Shown here piece after piece: positions 52,725 through 63,953 of a DNA stretch of 64,000 bases. Where the stretch lies: NCBI GenBank assembly GCA_027923505.1, contig BROI01000008.1, forward strand, positions 434,001 through 498,000. The letters run 5' to 3'. Each line of letters begins with the position of its first letter. Position 1 is the first letter of the stretch. Both the position numbers and the translations under genes were made by a program. The notes beneath the pieces were generated by a model, which had not been told where the DNA came from, made no database searches, and saw only the letters and a program-made list of their open reading frames with translations. The DNA comes from Mayamaea pseudoterrestris. Its lineage: Eukaryota.

Positions 52725-52890
52725 CACTGAGCTGCTAAGAGGGTGACAAGTTTGATACTGTATAGAAATGAGACTGGGACATGTGCGGTGGCTCATTATG
52801 CTTGGCGCTTAGACCACTTAACAGCATAATTGGTGGCAAGCTGCTGGTGTGAGTGCTTAGAGACAAAGTGGGAGTTACAGATTGGGAGCC
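52725..52890 (-). repeat. Degenerate inverted copy of the 144-bp PSxx repeat unit
   Basis: The reverse complement reads ccagcagcttgccacca...aagcgccaagc...cccagtctc...aacttgtcaccctct, colinear with the 63-kb repeat unit. Confidence 0.6.
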
Positions 52891-52969
52891 TGCAGGGCTG
52901 CAGTACTATACCAACTAATGTATGTGGCCCAGACACACATTAGACAACTTTCAACAGTCCATCCTCAAA

Positions 52970-54084
52970 GCCATGTCCATTACCATAATACACCAGGATG
53001 GTGACAGAACAATTATTTAGGCTGCGCAACAAGATAGTATGCCTGGCAAATGTCTCAGTAGACTGCAATGTGACTGGTGACAACTTCTCACCAGTCTACG
53101 CCAGCAGTTGCCTTGATATTCAATGACAATACATCAGGCCAGGTGTACACCAAATCATACAAGCATGGTGCCAACATAAATATCAGGCTGTGCTACAAGA
53201 TGGTATGCCTGGTGGGTGCCCTAGTAGACTGCAATGTGACTGGTGAGAACTTCTCACCAGTCTGAGCCTGCAGGTGATGCCCTGACATTCCATGGCCAAC
53301 ATAACATGCCATGTATACACCCAAATCACACCAGAATGGTGCCAACATCATTATGCAGTCTGCGCTACAAGATGGTATGCCTGGTTGGTGTCTCAGTAGA
53401 CTGCAATGTGACTGGTGAGAACTTGTCACCAGTCTCAGCCCGCAGATGCCTTGGCATTCAATTGTCCATATAACATGCCAAGTTTACATCCAAATCACAC
53501 CAGAATGGTGCCAACATCATTATTCAGTCTGCGCTACAAGATGGTATGCCTGGTGGGTGCCCTAGTAGACTGCAATGTGACTGGTGAGAACTTCTCACCA
53601 GTCTCAGCCCACAGGTGCCTTGACACTCTATTGCCCATATAACATGCCATGCATACACCCAAATCACACCAGAATGGTGCCAACATCATTATGCAGTCTG
53701 AGCTACAAGATGGTGTGCCTGGCTGGTGTCTCAGTCAACTGCAATGTGATTAATGAGAACTTCTCACCAGTCTCAACCCACAGATGCCTTGACATTCAAT
53801 TGCCCATATAGCATGCCACGTATACATTCAAATCACACCAAAATAGTGCCAAAACATCATTATTCCGTCTGCGCTACAAGATGGTATGCCTGGTTGGTGT
53901 CTCCGTAGACTGCAATGTGACTTGTGACAAGTTGTCACCAGTCTCGGCCCACAGATGCCCTGACATTCAATTGCCCCTATAACATGCCATGTATACACCT
54001 GAATCACACCAGAATGGTGCCAAAATAATTATTCAGTCTGCGCTACAAGATGGTTTGCCTGGCTGGTGCCCCAGTAGACTGCAA
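52970..54084. repeat. Tandem array of ~6.5 copies of a ~169-bp unit with an internal 25-bp palindrome
   Basis: The anchor position recurs at 53077, 53243, 53415, 53584, 53753 and 53924 (spacings 166, 172, 169, 169, 171). The core is GACTGGTGAGAA-C-TTCTCACCAGTC. Confidence 0.95.
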
Positions 54085-54532
54085 GATAGCATCTAGTTTA
54101 GCTACTTATTCGTTTTGCTATTAATACCGTAGACTGTTCGGTCTGACTCTCGTCAGATCGGTCCCTTCCCCTTGTGGCAAAGTGAAAATTCCGGCGCGCA
54201 AAACACGTTTTCGGTACAAGGCCTACACAAATTTCTACGCGGACTATGTGTCTCGGGACTCGAAAACGGTCAACGGATTACATCGGCATTGGACGAAGTA
54301 CGACGCGCCGGTACTCCCGCAAGGAACGACACGGCAGGTGCTACACACTAGCTGGGCATTATTGCATACTAGCTAACAAGCAGTCTTATAAGCATATAAA
54401 ACACCATGTTAGGCAGCTCAAGTGGTGTGCCATTTAATCGCGCCTACCTCCAAATGCATGAAGTATGGTTCAACTCCTCATCACCAGCTTGGCATCCTCT
54501 GAGGCTCACAGTCTGTCTTTAGCAATGATCAA

Positions 54533-54629
54533 GCAGCTTGCCGTCAAGTGTGCTGTCATGTGATCCAAGCGGCAAGCCCAGTGACTCGCCTAGCGCAGGA
54601 CCCATTCTCCTTCCCATTTCAGCACAAAG
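54533..54629 (+). repeat. Left part of the PSxx repeat unit interrupted by the retrotransposon
   Basis: agcagcttgccgtcaagtgtg...gcaggaccc matches the 144-bp unit and continues in register at 62930. Confidence 0.85.
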
Positions 54630-55016
54630 AGTTAAGGTATCTTCGGATCGGGTTCATATCTCTCCGGTACTCCGGGTCCGTTTCGACACCCATCATGTGT
54701 GGTCGGAATGTTCTTCATGTTGCTTGCTTCACCATGGCAACGCCTTGCTAGTAAAGGCATGCCCCAACCTCTCGCAAGCATGGTTACACTGTCAAACGGT
54801 CTATTATTACATAGGGAATCAGTTGAGGCGATCCGTTTGGCATGCATAACTGTAGTTTTCGCCCAACGCCTCGGGCGATGGTTTTGCAACTTGTTCGCTC
54901 AAATCTCGCTCACAATCTGATAGTCTGGTTGGTCCATAACACTATAAAGCAACAGTTGCATTACAAAGCATCTCCTTTCATCGTACTCAAGTAGATTGCA
55001 TCAAGCATTCTTCACT
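54630..55016 (+). repeat. 5' LTR (387 bp; AGTT...CACT)
   Basis: Identical by eye to 62538..62924. A TATA-like ctataaag lies near 54942. Confidence 0.95.
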
Positions 55017-55029
55017 GGTTACGGGCCCA
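55017..55029 (+). promoter_or_regulatory. Primer-binding site of the internal (half-tRNA iMet) type
   Basis: GGTTACGGGCCCA directly follows the LTR. It is one mismatch from GGTTATGGGCCCA, the Drosophila copia-type PBS complementary to the tRNA-iMet anticodon arm. Confidence 0.7.
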
Positions 55030-55147
55030 AGTTAAAGCCTTACACGCCAACGTTTCCTTCAAGCAAACGATTCCTTTTACGTCGGGACGCCGCCGTTTAA
55101 ACAAGCCAACAAGCCTTTGATATCAAGCTCCATACCCTGCAAGAAGC

Positions 55148-58100
55148 ATGTCGACACCTACTACTGCTCCCCAAGACACTGAACCGGCCGAGGATCCGTT
55201 TCAGCCCGTCCTCCCCAAGAAAAAGCGCAACCCTGCTCCAAAGGATGGAGAGGGTCCAGTCCCTGCTCCAAAGGATGGAGAGGAACCCCCGACGCCGTCT
55301 CCAAAGGTTGGAGGCAAGCCATGGCCTACACCTCCCCACGCTCCCGCTCCCGCTCCCGCTCCAGCTCAGGCGCCCGTCCCGCCGCCTGCTCCTGCTCCTC
55401 CGGCTCCTCCAGCCCCTCCGGCGCCTCCAGCTCCTCCAGCTCCTCCAGCTCCACCGGCGCCTCCTGCCCCGCCTGCTCCTCCTGCCCCGCCGGCAGACGA
55501 GCCGCCTGAAGATCCAGGCGCCTTGGCGGCAGCCGTGGATGCGGATCGCCCTCCTAAACCGGTGCACGGTGCACTTTGCAAATTGGAAAAGAAGTACATT
55601 CCCTACACTGGCGGTGAGCCGGCCCGTGACTTTGCCGAGTTCCCTCAGCCAGCCTACACCATCCGTCCGTCTCCATTGGCTCGCCTCCGGTTTGATGATG
55701 CCAAGCTCACCGGTTGGAATGCCCGTACCAAAGGACTGTCGCAAAAGCTGTCCTTAAAGGGCGACCTGCTCGCTTGGGAAATGCAGGTTGAGGAGCATCT
55801 CGTCACCCATGGAATGGACACCATTGTGCACCTCGATCACCCTTTGGATGACAAGCAAACCGTCTCCATTATCAAGCACAGTGGGCTTTTCTTGACCACC
55901 GACGAGGTCATCCGTCATCTCGAGGGACCCAAGAAGACCTGGGACCCTTATGATGAGGCAAATGATGATGAGGCCACCACATTCCTTCGCAATTCCATTG
56001 ATTCCGAGTTGCTCAAGCGCCTCATGTACCAAACGCCCGGCGGCAAGAAGGAGCCCTTTGTCATCACCTTTTCCCGTGTCATGTCAATGATGCGCCAGCA
56101 CAACCGCGAGGTTCACCACCGCATCGAACGGGAGGCAGTGGCCATCCGTCCCCAAGCTTTTGCAGGCCAAAACATCACTGCTTATGCGACCGCTGTACTG
56201 GACAAGCTCAAGCCTCTCTTCAATGCCTGCACCTACAATCATGATACCACTGAGGAGCTCATCATGGCCCTAAACACCGCAGGAGGCGAGTGTTTGAAGG
56301 AAAACCCTGGTGAGCTGGCCTTCCGTGAGGCGCTTTATCCCTTCAAAAAGCGTTACTATAAGGCCCGCCTGGAGCTCCGCCCCATGCGTGAAAGTGAACG
56401 GCATTTCTACATGGCGGAGCAGCGGTGCCTGCCCGAAGACCTCTTTGCTGATGCCATTGCCTCCTATGACGTCCTCTGTTCCAAGCAATTGTGGCAGCCT
56501 GCCCGCAACCGCACGGATTCGCGGGTTCCCCAAGCCAATCTCCTCGAGCTCAATACCAAGTCCCAGAGCTCCTCCCGCTCCACCCTTGCCCAGCGCGGCT
56601 GTTTTGTATGCGGTTCCATGGCTCACCAAATTACCGACTGCCCCAAAAAGGACGAGCATTTCAACCCGAAGAAGGATGGTGGTTCCAACGGTGGTGGCTC
56701 CGGTGGATCCAGCAAGCCCTCCCATTCCGGTTCTGGTCGAGGCAACCAAGGCAAAGGCAACTCCTCCCGTCAGAACAATAATGGCAAGGGCAACAAAGGC
56801 AACAACAACCGCTCCTCCAACGGCAAAAAGGGCCGTTCCTCCTCCAACCAGGACTCCAAGCTCTGGTGTGGCTATTGCACTCGGTATGGCACCCACTGCA
56901 CCAAGGAGCACAAGGACACGCGCACCATGAAGAACCCACCCAAGGAGCCTCCTACTCATCAGGCAAACCTTGCAAATGTGCATGATCCCAATGAGTGGGT
57001 GGTCCCTTATGTTAACCTGGCGCAAGTTGAGTTCCAAAAGCGCTGGTCTGCCCCGTCTCCTGATCCTGCCACTGTCCCAGTTGCTGCCCCACTTGTGAAC
57101 CGTTGGGTGGCGCCTCCTCGCATCATTCCTGATGGCCCTCCTACAGTTCCTCCTCCTGTGGCTGCAGCTCCTACTGTCATTGATTTAACTGAGACGGTTG
57201 TGGATTTGACCCTTGACGGGGGATCTGACAGTGAATCCGGTCACAGTGCCTCCACCGTTCCCAGCACCAACAAGGCAAAGCGCCCTGCTCGGTCCCACAG
57301 CAGTCCCTCTCGGTTCCCCAAGTCTGCCAAGATTGCTGTTGGTACCTTGCTCCTTTTGAGCCTGTGTGCTCCCAAGGCTGATGCATTTGCCCCGTTTGTC
57401 GCCCTCCGCCCTGCTGTGACCCCAGCTCCAAGCCCTACACTCAGCCAAGTGTATGAGTGGTTTCCGCCCGTGTTCACCCCAGTTCCTGAGCCTGCCTTGC
57501 CTACCGCCACCATTCACCTTCAGGAGACTGCCTCTCGGTTTAAGGAAGCCATTGGTGTGCCTGTGCCTGCCGTCACCCTTCTGGCCTCCTCGCTCCTTGA
57601 GCTCGCCAGCTCCAGCCTCTCCCTTGTGCATGCCACCCTCTTCTTCTACTGGATGCACTGGGAGCTCATTGAACCTTTCCTTTTGTGGTTCTTTCTGGCT
57701 GGATTGGTTCTGCTTGCCTGCTGGTACCGCGCCGCCTACCGCCGCCTTCGTCGGGGCCCACTTGGATGCCAACCTGCTCCATACTTGCGGCGCCTCCTCC
57801 TGCCTTACCGTGCCTACCGCGCCTTGAGTCGCACTGCCTGGCGAGGTATTCAAAGGTCTGTCTGGTGGGAAGCCTTCCTTTTGATGGATCATTTTGACCG
57901 GCGCCTCACACGGTGGTTTGCTCGGCAGTTTGCCTACTGGCTCTCCTACTGGCCTGCCAACGGGGGAAGATGCCATGCGAGGCCTGCGACTGTCCCTTTA
58001 CACCTTCAACGGGCACTCCTGGATCCCAATGCAATGATTGGCCATGTGGATCCTCAATATCCTCGGTATGTACCTGCCTCTCCCCGCAACAAGCGCCGCC

Positions 58101-58372
58101 GCCGCCAGCGCCGCAACAAGCGCGACCGCTGTGTTGCTGTGGCTGTTCCAGTTGCTCCTCCTCCGCCGCCTCTTCCAGTCCCTCACGTCCCTAAATCCCG
58201 CCGTCGAGGCCGCCGAGGCCGAGGCCGTTCCCGTAAAGGCAAGTCCCTTGGAAGAGACCAGTCTCGCAGCCCCTCCCGTGATCCTAAACGGGGGAATACT
58301 TTGTCAACCCAGCACGAGACCAAGCCATCTGCCAAGTCCATCACCAGACGCCGTTCACGTCCCTCCCATTAG
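55148..58372 (+). CDS. gag: Retrotransposon ORF1: Gag with a long membrane-protein-like C-terminal extension
   Basis: 1074 aa. It has a (PPA)n N-terminus, a CCHC knuckle CFVCGSMAHQITDC (56600..56641) and a second CxxC-H-H motif (56867..56911). Hydrophobic segments lie at ~57330-57395 and 57550-57730, followed by an Arg-rich tail. Confidence 0.9.
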   Translation: MSTPTTAPQDTEPAEDPFQPVLPKKKRNPAPKDGEGPVPAPKDGEEPPTPSPKVGGKPWPTPPHAPAPAPAPAQAPVPPPAPAPPAPPAPPAPPAPPAPPAPPAPPAPPAPPAPPADEPPEDPGALAAAVDADRPPKPVHGALCKLEKKYIPYTGGEPARDFAEFPQPAYTIRPSPLARLRFDDAKLTGWNARTKGLSQKLSLKGDLLAWEMQVEEHLVTHGMDTIVHLDHPLDDKQTVSIIKHSGLFLTTDEVIRHLEGPKKTWDPYDEANDDEATTFLRNSIDSELLKRLMYQTPGGKKEPFVITFSRVMSMMRQHNREVHHRIEREAVAIRPQAFAGQNITAYATAVLDKLKPLFNACTYNHDTTEELIMALNTAGGECLKENPGELAFREALYPFKKRYYKARLELRPMRESERHFYMAEQRCLPEDLFADAIASYDVLCSKQLWQPARNRTDSRVPQANLLELNTKSQSSSRSTLAQRGCFVCGSMAHQITDCPKKDEHFNPKKDGGSNGGGSGGSSKPSHSGSGRGNQGKGNSSRQNNNGKGNKGNNNRSSNGKKGRSSSNQDSKLWCGYCTRYGTHCTKEHKDTRTMKNPPKEPPTHQANLANVHDPNEWVVPYVNLAQVEFQKRWSAPSPDPATVPVAAPLVNRWVAPPRIIPDGPPTVPPPVAAAPTVIDLTETVVDLTLDGGSDSESGHSASTVPSTNKAKRPARSHSSPSRFPKSAKIAVGTLLLLSLCAPKADAFAPFVALRPAVTPAPSPTLSQVYEWFPPVFTPVPEPALPTATIHLQETASRFKEAIGVPVPAVTLLASSLLELASSSLSLVHATLFFYWMHWELIEPFLLWFFLAGLVLLACWYRAAYRRLRRGPLGCQPAPYLRRLLLPYRAYRALSRTAWRGIQRSVWWEAFLLMDHFDRRLTRWFARQFAYWLSYWPANGGRCHARPATVPLHLQRALLDPNAMIGHVDPQYPRYVPASPRNKRRRRQRRNKRDRCVAVAVPVAPPPPPLPVPHVPKSRRRGRRGRGRSRKGKSLGRDQSRSPSRDPKRGNTLSTQHETKPSAKSITRRRSRPSH

Positions 58373-61300
58373 CTATCTTGCTTCTGCCTACGTCTTGAGC
58401 CTTTCCTCCTCTGAGCGAGAGGCATTGGCTCTTAGACTTCGCAGCCATCCCGACGCCAATCCTAACTTCATTGACTCTAAGCCCAAGGCTAAAGAAGAGC
58501 AGTTCAAAGTGATTTGGGATTCAGGCGCCAGCATCTCCCTTTCTCCATGCCGCTCTGACTTTGTTGGTCCAATTGAAACGCCTCCTGAGGGAGCATTTAT
58601 CAATGGATTGTTTCAACCTGGTCGCATTGCAGGCAGGGGATGTGTTGCCTGGACCTTCCTTGACAATGGAGGCATGCGGCGCACCCTCAAACTCCCTGCA
58701 TATTACGTTCCTACTGGAAAGGTTCGGTTGCTCAGTACCTCCAACTTGCTGCAGCAATACCCAGAGGAATTCATCTATGGAGATGAGCATGCTATCTATC
58801 TAAGTGGAACCAAGTCTACCACGCATGAGGATGGATCCATTACCAACAATGGGATTGAAGTCTTGGTGGATCCTGATTCAAACTTGCCCACTGCCTACGC
58901 CATTGACAATGATTCTGGCCCAAATGCCTTTTACATCGATCCTGGAACACCTGGCCCTCCACCTGGTCCAGCACCAAGTTCACCTTCTGACCAATCACAA
59001 GGCGAAGGAGGCTCAAGTGGTTCATCTCCTGGTTCTCCACAAGGCCCTCGAGACCCTGATCCGCCTTCTTCTTCCCCATCTGGCGCGCCAAGTGCTCCAG
59101 GCTCTCCATATTGCCTTGCAGTCACCCCAGCTCCTTCCGTCCTTTCAAACATCAACAAGAATCTCAGTGAGTCTGAAAAGGAGCTCCTTAGATGGCATTT
59201 CCGCCTTGGCCATCTCGCCTTCAACCGGATCCAGTTCCTGATGCGCAGTGGCACCCTCTCCCATTCAGAGGCCCAGCGCAGGCTCCATGCCCTTAGCTCC
59301 CGCATTATTCACCCTCCAATGTGTGCTGCCTGTCAATATGCCAAGCAAAAGGTTCGCGCAACCCCAGGCATTCAGTCTCAAGCAGTTAAAGACCGAGCGG
59401 GTGTCCTACGGCGCGACAATCTGTTTCCAGGGCAGCGCGTCAGTGTGGACCATTTCATTTGCTCTACAAAGGGCCGTGACCTGTTCAACTCTAGAGGCAA
59501 GAGTCAAGAAACTGAGCTCTTCAGTGGCGGTTGCATCTTTGTGGATCATGCTACTGGCTTTGTCCACATTGAGTTCCAGAAGCACCTCAATTCTGATGAA
59601 ACGCTTGCAGCCAAGGAGGCCTTTGAGCTCAAATGCCGTGACTTTGGAGTCCTTCCTCAAGAGTATCTTTCAGACAATGGAAGAGCCTTTACCTCCCAAG
59701 CATTTGCGCAGCATTTGTCCACCTTTGCTCAAGTTAGCAGGTTTGCTGGCACTGGAGCCCACCATCACAATGGCATTGCAGAGCGCAGTATCCAAACAAT
59801 CATGAGCATCTCGCGTGCTATGATGCTGCATGCCTCCATCCACTGGAGTGAAGTCTCTGATCCTAATCTGTGGCCCATGGCCTGCAGCTACGCCGTCTTC
59901 CTTTGGAACAAGATGCCAGACCTGCAAAGCGGTGTGAGTCCCCATGACCTCTTTACCAGGACTCGCTGGCCTCAAGCCAAGTTCCATGACCTCCATGTAT
60001 GGGGATGCCCAGTGTATGTCCTTGAAAAGCGCCTTTCTGATGGCCAGAAGCTTCCAAGGTGGTCACCTCGCTCCAAGCGCTGCATCTTCATGGGTATGAG
60101 CGACAGTCATGCCAGCTCTGTCCCTTTGGTCCTCAATCCTGCAACAGGAGCTATTACACCACAGTTCCATGTTGTTTTTGATGACTGGTTTGCTACAGTT
60201 ACCTCGGAACCGTCCAGTTTGCCTGACTTCAACACCCCGGCCTGGGACAAGATGTTTGGCGAAAGCGCCTACCAGTACATTCCCACCGACGAACCCGAGT
60301 CTCTGTCTGCAACACCGGATGATGCTACACCTCCCATTACTGAAGCTGCAAGTCAAAGGATCGACAGGGTACAGAATGCCTTCGAACGCAACAGTCCCCC
60401 TCGCGTCCTTCCCATTCCGCCTCCGCCTGAGCCAACCTGGGCACAGCTTCCGCCAGCACCGGCGCCAATGCCAGCTACGCCAGCGGTACCAAGAGCGCCC
60501 AGTCCTCCTCCTACAAGGGCGCCAAGTTCGCCTCCACCAAGGGCGCCTAGTCCTCCTCCTGCAAGGGCGCCTAGTCCGCCTCCAACAAGGGCGCCATCTC
60601 CCATTTTGCACGACCCAAGGGCGAACGAATCCGCACCTCCGTCGTCACCTGCACCTCCGCCGGCTCCAGCTACACAGCATGAACCAAGACGCTCTAGTCG
60701 CTCCAATTTTGGTGTTCAACCCAATCGACTTACCTACCCGCGCCTTGGCCTTCCAGCCATGTTCGCCTACACTGAAAAGGTGGCTGAGTATGCCCATTTT
60801 GCCTCCCTGTATTCCGCCTTCCGCATCCCAGCGCCAGCCATTTACAAAGCTGCTGCCTCTGATCCCGACACCCTTTCCTGGGATGAGGCAATGTGCGATG
60901 TATCTCACCGAGATCACTGGCTCAAGGCTGCAGAAGGAGAAATCACATCCCTACAGTCAAAAGGCACATGGATTGAAGTCCCCAAGTCTGAGGCCAAGAG
61001 CAGGATCATCCCCGGCACCTGGGTCTTTCGCCGCAAGCGTTCACCCGATGGCACAATCAAGAAGTACAAAGCTCGCTTCTGTGTCCGTGGTGACCTTGAG
61101 GAAGGCTCATTTGACACCTTTGCCCCGGTTGTGGCCTGGTCTACCATTCGCCTCCTCCTAGTGTTTGCCCTGACCCTTGACTGGCATGCCTGCACCGTCG
61201 ATTTTGCAAGTGCCTTTGTCCAAGATGAATTGGATAAGCCAGTCTGGATTCACATTCCTCGAGGTTTCAACTCAAGCAAAGGCCCCAACCACTGCCTGCG

Positions 61301-62441
61301 CCTCAAGAAGAGCCTCTACGGCTTGTCCGTTGCACCCCGACTCTGGTTTCAACACCTGTGCAGCGCCTTGAAAAGCCTTGGTCTCATACAAAGCTCCTTT
61401 GACCAATGCTTGTTCTTTGGCCTTGGTCTAGTGTGCGGGTGCTATGTGGACGATTTAGCTATCATTGGCAAGACTCCAAAGGTTGTCAACGACTTTGTTG
61501 CAAAGCACCGGTCCCTTGGTCTTGAACTCACTCAGGAAGACTCCCTTTGCGAGTACCTTGGCATCAAGCTTGTACGTGATGATGCTAAAGGGACCTACAC
61601 TCTCACCCAACAAGGATTGATTGACAAGATTATCACTGCCACTGGCCTTGCCGAGTCCAACCCCAACAGTGTCCCTGCTACCCAGCTTGCCCTTGGCACC
61701 GACCCCGATGGAGCCTACATGCAAGAAGGCTGGTCCTACCCTTCTGTTGTTGGCATGCTCCTCTATCTTGCCATCAATACCCGCCCAGACATTGCCTATG
61801 CCATCAGTCAAGTAGCACGTTTCAACCATGGTCCCAAGCAGACTCATGCGAGAGCTGTTAAAATGATTGTCCGTTACCTCAAGGGATCCCGCACCATTGG
61901 CACCGTCATGAAGCCAAATGGTTCCTTCAATCTTGATCTTTATACGGATGCCGACTATGCTGGTTTGTATAAACAGGAACCCGACCATTCTGCTACAGCA
62001 GTCCGCTCTCGTACAGGCTACATCATTCTTCTCGGTAGCTGCCCGCTTGTTTGGAAATCCCAGCTACAGACCGAGATTGCCCTTTCAACTCTGGAAGCCA
62101 AGTACTGTGCACTCTCCCTTGGTCTTAAAGCCCTTCTCCCTCTCAAGCGCATCCTTATGGAAGTCCTTCAGACCCTCCGCCTTCCCAGTCCTACAGCAAC
62201 TTGCGTGAGCGCTCGTGCCTACCAGGATAACCAAGGCGCCTTCTACCTTGCCGTCAATAAGCGCCTCACCAACCGCACCAAGCACATGTTGGTCAAGTTC
62301 CATTGGTTTTGGCGCCACCATGAGCAAGGCGAATTCTCTATCTGCATGGTTAAGTCGGCCGATCAACTGGCAGACTACCTCACCAAGGGTCTCTCCAAGG
62401 ATGTGTTCCTCAAGAACCGCAGAAGCGTCCAACACAATTAA
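58038..62441 (+). CDS. pol: Retrotransposon ORF2: Pol (protease, integrase, RT, RNase H), in the +1 frame relative to gag
   Basis: PR IWDSGAS; HHCC WHFRLGH..CAAC; IN VDH/SDNG/GIAER; RT KYKARFCVRGD, VDFASAF, SLYGL, YVDD; RH YTDADYA, YQDNQ, RTKH, QLADYLTK. Confidence 0.95.
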   Translation: MAMWILNILGMYLPLPATSAAAASAATSATAVLLWLFQLLLLRRLFQSLTSLNPAVEAAEAEAVPVKASPLEETSLAAPPVILNGGILCQPSTRPSHLPSPSPDAVHVPPISYLASAYVLSLSSSEREALALRLRSHPDANPNFIDSKPKAKEEQFKVIWDSGASISLSPCRSDFVGPIETPPEGAFINGLFQPGRIAGRGCVAWTFLDNGGMRRTLKLPAYYVPTGKVRLLSTSNLLQQYPEEFIYGDEHAIYLSGTKSTTHEDGSITNNGIEVLVDPDSNLPTAYAIDNDSGPNAFYIDPGTPGPPPGPAPSSPSDQSQGEGGSSGSSPGSPQGPRDPDPPSSSPSGAPSAPGSPYCLAVTPAPSVLSNINKNLSESEKELLRWHFRLGHLAFNRIQFLMRSGTLSHSEAQRRLHALSSRIIHPPMCAACQYAKQKVRATPGIQSQAVKDRAGVLRRDNLFPGQRVSVDHFICSTKGRDLFNSRGKSQETELFSGGCIFVDHATGFVHIEFQKHLNSDETLAAKEAFELKCRDFGVLPQEYLSDNGRAFTSQAFAQHLSTFAQVSRFAGTGAHHHNGIAERSIQTIMSISRAMMLHASIHWSEVSDPNLWPMACSYAVFLWNKMPDLQSGVSPHDLFTRTRWPQAKFHDLHVWGCPVYVLEKRLSDGQKLPRWSPRSKRCIFMGMSDSHASSVPLVLNPATGAITPQFHVVFDDWFATVTSEPSSLPDFNTPAWDKMFGESAYQYIPTDEPESLSATPDDATPPITEAASQRIDRVQNAFERNSPPRVLPIPPPPEPTWAQLPPAPAPMPATPAVPRAPSPPPTRAPSSPPPRAPSPPPARAPSPPPTRAPSPILHDPRANESAPPSSPAPPPAPATQHEPRRSSRSNFGVQPNRLTYPRLGLPAMFAYTEKVAEYAHFASLYSAFRIPAPAIYKAAASDPDTLSWDEAMCDVSHRDHWLKAAEGEITSLQSKGTWIEVPKSEAKSRIIPGTWVFRRKRSPDGTIKKYKARFCVRGDLEEGSFDTFAPVVAWSTIRLLLVFALTLDWHACTVDFASAFVQDELDKPVWIHIPRGFNSSKGPNHCLRLKKSLYGLSVAPRLWFQHLCSALKSLGLIQSSFDQCLFFGLGLVCGCYVDDLAIIGKTPKVVNDFVAKHRSLGLELTQEDSLCEYLGIKLVRDDAKGTYTLTQQGLIDKIITATGLAESNPNSVPATQLALGTDPDGAYMQEGWSYPSVVGMLLYLAINTRPDIAYAISQVARFNHGPKQTHARAVKMIVRYLKGSRTIGTVMKPNGSFNLDLYTDADYAGLYKQEPDHSATAVRSRTGYIILLGSCPLVWKSQLQTEIALSTLEAKYCALSLGLKALLPLKRILMEVLQTLRLPSPTATCVSARAYQDNQGAFYLAVNKRLTNRTKHMLVKFHWFWRHHEQGEFSICMVKSADQLADYLTKGLSKDVFLKNRRSVQHN

Positions 62442-62524
62442 GCTCCTGCTGCTTCTTCTACATCTCTACACCTCTACATTCAAATAACTACATTTTACAT
62501 TCCCATTCCTATTTGCCTGCATTC

Positions 62525-62537
62525 AAGCGCAAGGGCG
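62525..62537 (+). promoter_or_regulatory. Polypurine tract
   Basis: The purine-rich aagcgcaagggcg lies immediately 5' of the 3' LTR. Confidence 0.65.
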
Positions 62538-62924
62538 AGTTAAGGTATCTTCGGATCGGGTTCATATCTCTCCGGTACTCCGGGTCCGTTTCGACACCCA
62601 TCATGTGTGGTCGGAATGTTCTTCATGTTGCTTGCTTCACCATGGCAACGCCTTGCTAGTAAAGGCATGCCCCAACCTCTCGCAAGCATGGTTACACTGT
62701 CAAACGGTCTATTATTACATAGGGAATCAGTTGAGGCGATCCGTTTGGCATGCATAACTGTAGTTTTCGCCCAACGCCTCGGGCGATGGTTTTGCAACTT
62801 GTTCGCTCAAATCTCGCTCACAATCTGATAGTCTGGTTGGTCCATAACACTATAAAGCAACAGTTGCATTACAAAGCATCTCCTTTCATCGTACTCAAGT
62901 AGATTGCATCAAGCATTCTTCACT
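62538..62924 (+). repeat. 3' LTR (387 bp)
   Basis: Direct repeat of 54630..55016, followed by the TSD CAAAG. Confidence 0.95.
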
Positions 62925-62929
62925 CAAAG

Positions 62930-63953
62930 CTTGTCACATTCTGTAGCTTCCAGTTGGTCTCCCAGCACTTACTCCAGCAGCCTACCATCAAAGCGCCAAG
63001 CCCAGAGTGTCACCTAGCGCAGGACCCAGTCTCCATCATAGTGCAGCACCAATATTTTCCTCTTCTGCAGCTTCCAACACCCGCCCCAGCAGCTTGTTAA
63101 CAAATGTGCCTTTCAGTGACCCAAGCGCCAAGCGCAGTGATCCCTGCACCGTACCAAGCAGCTTGCCATCAAGTGTGCCATCAAGTAATCTATGCGTTAA
63201 GCCCAGTGTCTTACCTAGCGCAGGACCCAGTATCCTTCCCAGTGCAGCTCCAAGCTTGTCACCATCTGTGGCTCCCAGTTGCTCTCCCAGCAGCCATCCC
63301 AGCAGCTTGCCATCAAGTGTGCCATCATGTGGTCCAAGCGGCAAGCCCAGTAACTCACCTAGCGCAGGACCCAGTCTCCTTCCCAGTGCAGCTGCAAGCT
63401 TGTCACCCTCTGTAGCTCCCAGTTGGTCTCCCAGCACCCAATCCAGCAGCTTGCCATCAAGTGTGCCAACATGTGATCCAAGCGGCAAGCCCAGTGACTC
63501 ACCTAGAGCAGGACCCAGTCTCCTTCCCAGTGCAGCATCAAGCTTGTCACCCTCTAGTAGCTCCCAGTTTGTCTATCAGCACTCAACCCGGCAGCTTGCC
63601 ATCAAGTGTGCCATCAAGTGATCCAAATGCCAAGCTAGGCTCTCCGTTTGTCTCTAGGCACTAAACCCAGCAGCTTGCCATCAAGTGTGCCAACATGTGA
63701 TCCAAGCGGCAAGCCTAGTGACTCACCTAGAGCAGGACCCAGTCTCCTTCCCAGTGCAGATGCAAGCTTGGTCACCCTCTGTAGCTCCTAGCTGGTCTCC
63801 CAGCACCCAACCCAGCAGCTTGCCATCAAGTGTGTTGTCATGTGATGCAAGCGGCAAGCCCAGTGACTCACCTAGCGCAGGACTCAGTCTCCTTCCCAGT
63901 GCAGCTTCGAGTTTGTCACCCTCTGTGGCTCTCAGTTTGTCTCCAAGCACTTA
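62930..63953 (+). pseudogene. Decayed Pro/Ser-rich (PSxx)n coding repeat with a 144-bp higher-order unit
   Basis: The agcagcttgcc anchor recurs at 63157, 63301, 63445 and ~63590. Translation gives PSSLPSSVPS..PSGKPSDSPSAGPSLLPSAAPSLSPSVAPS, with frameshifts and many Cys/Trp codons consistent with CpG decay. Confidence 0.8.

Follow-up and report, generated by a model that had tools for sequence, protein, structure and literature searches.

A Ty1/copia Retrotransposon of the Diatom Mayamaea pseudoterrestris and Its Relatives with AGT...ACT Termini

Structure and Boundaries of the Element

A 64,000-nucleotide stretch of the Mayamaea pseudoterrestris assembly GCA_027923505.1 (contig BROI01000008.1, positions 434,001 to 498,000; hereafter "the window," in whose coordinates features are given) contains a diatom Ty1/copia retrotransposon that inserted recently and whose long terminal repeats (LTRs) begin with AGT and end with ACT. 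The element occupies positions 54630–62924, and all of its features lie on the forward strand. Sequence comparison identified a 5-bp target site duplication (TSD), CAAAG, at 54625–54629 and 62925–62929. The 5′ LTR (54630–55016) and the 3′ LTR (62538–62924) are identical, each 387 bp long and running from AGTTAA to TTCACT. The mismatch-free match between them covers 54629–55016 and 62537–62924, as the G at 54629 and 62537 is common to the TSD and the polypurine tract (PPT) by chance and does not belong to the LTR proper. The primer-binding site (PBS, 55017–55030) abuts the terminal ACT, and the PPT AAGCGCAAGGGCG (62525–62537) directly precedes the AGT. An earlier note, made from the sequence alone, had derived the AGT...ACT ends from LTR identity, the PBS, the PPT and the CAAAG duplication, and these ends were confirmed at the positions given here. 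Excision of the element together with one CAAAG also restores the host repeat in register, as the note had proposed, when compared with five host repeat units.

The gag-side frame (55148–58372) encodes 1074 amino acids without a Pfam match and carries a CCHC zinc knuckle motif (56600–56641). The pol frame (58038–62441) encodes a WDSGA protease motif (58515; residue 159), a gag_pre-integrs domain (residues 373–436), integrase (59148–60230), a reverse transcriptase (RT) domain (RVT_2, residues 984–1213) with a YVDD motif (61443), and the RNase H motif ADYLTK (62370; residue 1444). The integrase includes an HHCC zinc domain, an intact D,D35E triad (D470-D545-E581) and an SH3-like domain (residues 647–715), while the rve match at residues 494–562 is under the Pfam cut-off. 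The order protease, integrase, RT and RNase H is that of Ty1/copia (Pseudoviridae), in agreement with the earlier assignment, and the two LTRs, PBS, PPT and TSD expected of such an element are all present. The typical TG...CA termini are lacking; these are not among the criteria for Pseudoviridae in the ICTV profile (PMC8515867). In the window copy, small indels at approximately 58300–58460 separate gag from pol, and these may reflect either decay or assembly error, whereas two other copies encode a single frame of 2445–2449 amino acids.

Shared Termini Across the Family

A genome search for the family of the window element ("family A") found 10 LTR matches, in which all nine readable starts are AGT and all nine readable ends are ACT. 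The three full-length copies flanked by TSDs are all AGT...ACT, each with its own 5-bp duplication: CAAAG in the window, CCCCA on contig C27 and GTCGG on contig C31. The earlier note had named TG...CA termini in other copies, with the window copy as an isolated mutant, as one outcome that would overturn its view; the tabulated copies instead show a heritable trait that belongs to the lineage and is not an isolated mutation.

The remaining doubts about the boundary call concern local misassembly and a 4-bp TSD with GAGT...CACT ends, which the note had offered as a second reading. Some copies in the assembly carry many small indels. Moreover, a G precedes AGT in 27 of 38 flanks of family A and the related families B to E described below (unmatched flanks included), and this common G at TSD position 5 made the base before AGT look ambiguous. 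In the C27 copy, however, the base before AGT is an A and is duplicated, which places the G outside the LTR, and all five bases are likewise duplicated at sites with T or C before AGT (ACCGT and GTCTC). These TSDs rule out the 4-bp duplication and shifted boundaries. A 389-nt contig of Logan short reads (run X1) matches 62538–62924 exactly, covering the 3′ LTR from end to end, and its possession of both LTR ends argues against misassembly; the run is possibly the source sample and does not represent an independent population. Among the short-read joints shown, beyond which there are 26 further joints, none spans the exact empty site. The same assembly also yields canonical termini elsewhere: an LTR pair was resolved for 13 of 20 other copia loci, of which 12 begin with TG, one lacks its first base and none begins with A. 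Misassembly, an isolated mutant and a 4-bp TSD, taken together, have a negligible probability.

At one further locus (L010, G000:C4:1208237-1208333), the first 97 bp of an LTR follow the same 40 bp of upstream sequence that flank the C31 copy, and the junction may be duplicated, allelic or misjoined.

Related Families and Target Sites

An integrase search of the genome returned 36 matches, which were sorted into families. Families B, C and D (74–82% identity) share AGT...ACT ends, family E (55%) has AGT...ATA, family F (41%) has TA...GA, and family G (37–40%) has TG...CA together with a different primer site. Perfect 5-bp TSDs flank eight AG...CT insertions (three in A, two in B, two in C and one in D), two of which are solo LTRs, as well as four AG...TA and two TA...GA insertions. 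The remaining copies either are truncated or lack matching flanks.

The flanks of families A to E show, besides the frequent G at TSD position 5, a C as the first TSD base in 22 of 38. For CoDi1 and CoDi2 elements, the corresponding counts from Table S11 of PMC8147415 are 7 of 25 for G and 3 of 25 for C. The C-N-N-N-G target bias is, besides the termini, a second trait of these integrases that can be tested. Nine TG...CA insertions with TSDs from other copia loci of the same assembly apparently lack this bias. In family F (L036 and L038; G000:C24 and C5), the sixth flank base is T in both copies, and a 6-bp TSD with an A start is a possible alternative to TA...GA ends with 5-bp TSDs. Matching 5-bp flanks also occur on different contigs, namely CTATG for L143 and L140 (C37 and C19) and CTTGG for L169 and L171 (C32 and C7), which suggests that copies have recombined or that the assembly is broken within elements.

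Probable Priming by an Initiator tRNA Fragment

A host tRNA-Met gene with A1 is located at L128:1474-1546. The window PBS is complementary to nucleotides 26–39 of this initiator tRNA-Met, with 12 Watson-Crick pairs of 14 plus one G:U pair, and the C27 copy pairs at 13 of 14. Across families A to F, the PBS pairs with approximately the same nucleotides at 10–14 of 14 positions. Complementarity to an internal segment of initiator tRNA-Met defines hemivirus-type, or half-tRNA, priming (PMC8515867), and the available text of PMC6317226 describes 1/2 tRNA-Met priming for Osser, Bryco and Gymco-II. As in those elements, the PBS matches the anticodon arm and abuts the LTR (PMC8515867; PMC6317226), and from this complementarity a half-tRNA fragment is probably the real primer. 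The likeness is one of priming alone, which shows no kinship, and the window element differs in its A...T termini.

The position of the PBS bears on whether the terminal T of U5 (the right end of the LTR) is LTR sequence read by integrase at all. The junction ACT|GGTT can also be read as AC|TGGTT, resembling a CCA-type primer site, so that the T could come from an A added to the half-tRNA and pairing with TGG. Yet nucleotide 40 of the tRNA is C and does not template a T, and a primer-derived T would account neither for the A at U3 (the left end) nor for the ATA end of family E. We consider this origin highly improbable.

Family G (L039 and L040; G000:C9, approximately 610–620 kb, and C28, approximately 338–348 kb) has a primer site that abuts the LTR and matches initiator tRNA nucleotides 10–23 (D-arm) at 14 of 14 positions, suggesting that its putative primer fragment is only about 23 nt long. 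Other copia families (L323-L326, L329 and L331) have a palindrome-like sequence at the primer-site position without a match to the initiator tRNA.

Metagenomic Relatives and Covariation of the Ends

The lineage extends well beyond this genome. Related metagenomic loci number 79, and 33 include the PPT junction: 25 begin with A (21 AGT, 3 AGC and 1 AAT), six with TGT, and two are ambiguous. The PPT consensus GAGAGGGAG, which has the same register as the PPT of the window element, and the PBS consensus GGTTATGAGCCC are common to TG- and AG-elements and lie at equal distances from the LTR, so that only the outermost pair differs and nothing has been added.

This spacing is pertinent to the idea that a canonical CA is hidden two bases inside (...TTCA-CT), with AG and CT as dinucleotide extensions left unprocessed, comparable to those on retroviral cDNA. 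The TTCACT ends of families A, B and D would suit such an arrangement. On the joined strand, however, the opposite end reads TTAA-CT or CGA-CT and not CA-CT, family C ends in TTTAACT, and relatives end in TGACT, TTACT, CGACT or TCGCT. The register and the ends of family C and the relatives effectively rule out a hidden CA, whose probability is as slight as that of a primer-derived T.

Both ends are known for 17 elements, of which 11 start with A (10 of them ending in T) and six start with T (all ending in A); the terminal bases are therefore complementary in 16 of 17. Among 34 readable U3 starts, all 27 non-T elements begin with A (23 AGT, 3 AGC and 1 AAT). The U5 ends are more varied and include ACT, GCT, CCT, AGT, ATT, GAT, GTT, ATA and ACA. 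Within the group to which the A-start elements belong, 14 of 18 readable U5 ends terminate in T, compared to 0 of 10 outside the group.

Phylogenetic analysis was based on 75 sequences, after removal of 12 rows that were near-duplicate or partial and of those shorter than 290 amino acids; the doubtful starts of L051 and L121 and the doubtful end of L091 were set to unknown. The lineage spans approximately 40–100% integrase identity. On the integrase tree, the first base requires one change, in contrast to 6.5 for shuffled labels (0 of 500 shuffles were as low). When this tree was rooted on one partial outgroup, TG...CA elements were basal. Trees of integrase plus RT instead nested the TG...CA group within A-start elements, with monophyly of the A-start elements in 0 of 67 bootstraps. 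In RT trees with eight outgroups, A-start monophyly was recovered in 0 of 80 and monophyly of the TG group in 69 of 80. A derived A-start clade was thus not upheld. Basal support is low, and the two end types differ by about one transition, which may have run in either direction.

Viral contigs contained no protein relative, and pol was present at 0 of 120 loci with the PBS pattern. Prokaryote genome contigs yielded five matches in metagenome-assembled genomes, one of which has a TGT start; these are probably stray eukaryotic contigs. No RNA holder was listed.

The Integrase and a Candidate Residue

The integrase fold matches retroviral integrases, and its loop aligns without gaps with that of human T-cell leukemia virus type 2 integrase. 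An AlphaFold model built from seven sequences was poor (mean pLDDT 54, below 50 in loop 203–208) and was used for confirmation of the fold alone. The earlier note had recommended comparing integrase residues with TG...CA relatives. This comparison gave at most a lead: loop position 207, which is H576 within the motif HHHNG (59766) of the window element, ranked first among 868 tests of association with a CT right end, with His in 8 of 10 CT ends and 1 of 18 others. The p-value of 1.2e-4 is uncorrected and becomes approximately 0.1 after Bonferroni correction, and there are only four changes on the tree. Position 207 is Gln in all 11 TG...CA elements. Counted from the catalytic Glu, it adjoins the counterpart of Gln151 of Rous sarcoma virus (RSV) and Gln215 of prototype foamy virus, and RSV Gln151 is described in the available part of PMC7955051 as stacking on the guanine opposite the terminal C. 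As kinship confounds the association and correction removes its significance, position 207 (Q/H) is a weak candidate and a lead only.

Comparison with Known Elements

The named homologues are diatom proteins with 62–70% integrase identity, and most Atlas clusters that have a record belong to Bacillariophyta. The element resembles CoDi elements, the copia elements of diatoms, in its host, copia domain order, 5-bp TSD and a length near the 5.2–8.1 kb of CoDi (PMC2806351, PMC8147415). According to the available text of Maumus et al. (2009, PMC2806351), 3 of 26 CoDi families lack TG/CA. In Filloramo et al. (2021, PMC8147415), Tables S10 and S11 give only terminal motifs that start with T (TGCA, TACA, TGTA, TATA, TTCG, TGAG, TGGA and TGAT), and unlike the window element, none is AG...CT.

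Plant copia elements without TGCA, including Tos17 (TG..GA), AtRE1 (TA..TA), TARE1 (TA..CA) and a lotus element (TG..CT), demonstrate that non-canonical ends, also with a CT right end, can be heritable and transposition-competent (PMC9804982, bioRxiv 137141). The portions of these two surveys at hand, the lotus paper and the LTR_retriever preprint, describe the first nucleotide as always T, which agrees with the note's view that an AGT start is unexpected for copia. Most of those plant ends are non-palindromic, whereas the lineage described here starts with A and has mostly complementary ends.

The note had also pointed to AGT starts in insect gypsy-group elements, and this was borne out by the Zam clade of errantiviruses (Ty3/gypsy), whose ends are given in the accessible text of PMC3601003 as AGTTAYRK...TAAYT. 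The left end AGTTA matches the window element, and the right end is TCACT here and TAACT in family C (AGTTAAAG...TTTAACT). Zam elements belong to another superfamily; the window element has its integrase before the RT, contrary to the gypsy order, and no env frame was seen in it. The likeness to Zam ends is convergent. No AG...CT copia element was found in the open-licence text of PMC and bioRxiv, a search that Repbase and GyDB lay outside. In the printed material found, as far as it was available, non-TG...CA copia ends all retain the first T, and AGT starts are given only for Zam-type gypsy elements.

Interpretation of the AG...CT Ends

The sequence itself shows the ends, the TSDs of 5 bp and an unaltered register of the two priming signals. 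We interpret them as the marks of a broad, half-tRNA-primed copia lineage in which the outermost LTR pair is A...T in place of T...A and is read by a common symmetric intasome, and we assign this interpretation a probability of roughly two in three. The 5′ 39-nt fragment of the initiator tRNA, bound beside U5, would prime the minus strand, and plus-strand synthesis would begin at the PPT beside U3. The cDNA would then have flush AGT...ACT ends and would be joined through its 3′-terminal T (...CT-OH) with a 5-bp stagger, preferably at C-N-N-N-G targets. The intasome may keep the inner C:G pair at U3 and favour or tolerate T as the last base, with stricter recognition at U3 than at U5. Although different stretches of the RNA template the two ends, these change together, and a two-fold symmetric intasome is the likeliest common reader.

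Several observations weigh against this interpretation. Family E, with its asymmetric AG...TA ends, is the most numerous related family in the genome (24 LTR matches), so that symmetry of the ends is not required. Of the 18 readable U5 ends in the group containing the A-start elements, 10 are CT, and the rest are AT, GT, TT (2), TA, GA and CA (2). Most metagenomic starts are read from the PPT register alone, with both LTR starts visible only in L083. The covariation in 16 of 17 elements amounts to approximately one evolutionary transition and not to independent events. No integrase position cleanly divides A-start from TG-start elements, and a relaxed reading of the last base would suit the data no less than a switched one. 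The earlier note had argued that a symmetric change implies altered integrase specificity: AG...CT is indeed symmetric in this element, but an altered specificity is at most suggested by the sequences, given the drift at U5, the asymmetry of family E, the weakness of the one candidate residue and the disagreement among trees on direction.

Relaxed recognition is also the core of the principal rival, in which the integrase is simply relaxed towards the terminal base, U5 drifts freely, and reverse transcription fixes the A of U3, through either plus-strand initiation or the RNase H cut at the PPT/U3 junction. The near-uniform U3 starts beside varied U5 ends are consistent with this, as are the clean 5-bp TSDs of families E and F and the tolerance of TA..TA, TG..CT and other ends among published CoDi and plant copia families, as far as the sources available describe them. 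On the other hand, free drift would not favour the complement of the U3 start, as seen in the excess of U5 terminal T within the group, and the PPT consensus is common to TG- and AG-elements. We therefore regard this rival as rather unlikely, but as the most serious of the alternatives.

A bolder reading is that AG...CT represents an old second integrase end-code of a widespread diatom copia lineage, independent of insect Zam and possibly the original state of half-tRNA-primed elements, from which both ends together returned to TG...CA a single time, while the Gln-to-His change in the loop (HHQNG to HHHNG) would tune the recognition of CT. We consider this proposal less likely than not.

A terminal CA is treated as an invariant integrase signal, and the consulted parts of copia surveys report the first T as unchanged, from which an A-start lineage departs. 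As close TG...CA relatives share its primer sites, this lineage offers a comparison for finding the residues that read the terminal base pair, and a young diatom element with such relatives constitutes a natural test of how integrase recognises DNA ends. There are also consequences for annotation, as at least five families in the 30.6-Mb genome begin with AG and would not be called intact by T-start motif lists. The note's expectation that TG..CA-based finders miss this family follows from their published motifs, as given in the available text of the LTR_retriever preprint (bioRxiv 137141).

Host Repeats and the Gag-Side Linker

The insertion splits a host tandem repeat of approximately 144 bp with a Ser/Pro-rich frame, of which one part lies at approximately 54489–54624 and the other at 62930–63950. 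Host tandem arrays of approximately 169 bp and 144 bp occur at 52940–54084 and 63100–63950, and an inverted copy of the 144-bp repeat lies at 52787–52887. The related insertions L018, L019 and L135 apparently lie in similar arrays, and the elements may cluster in satellite DNA.

The long linker between the zinc knuckle and the protease (56640–58500) contains a hydrophobic, membrane-like stretch of 19 residues, near 57665 in the gag-side frame. Besides the window region, it was found in L015, L018, L048, L049, L057 and L072, and it is present in 6 of 6 frames having both markers. In the family of the window element, a signal-peptide-like sequence lies before it and ends in ADAFAP, which presumably resembles the plastid-targeting motif of diatoms.

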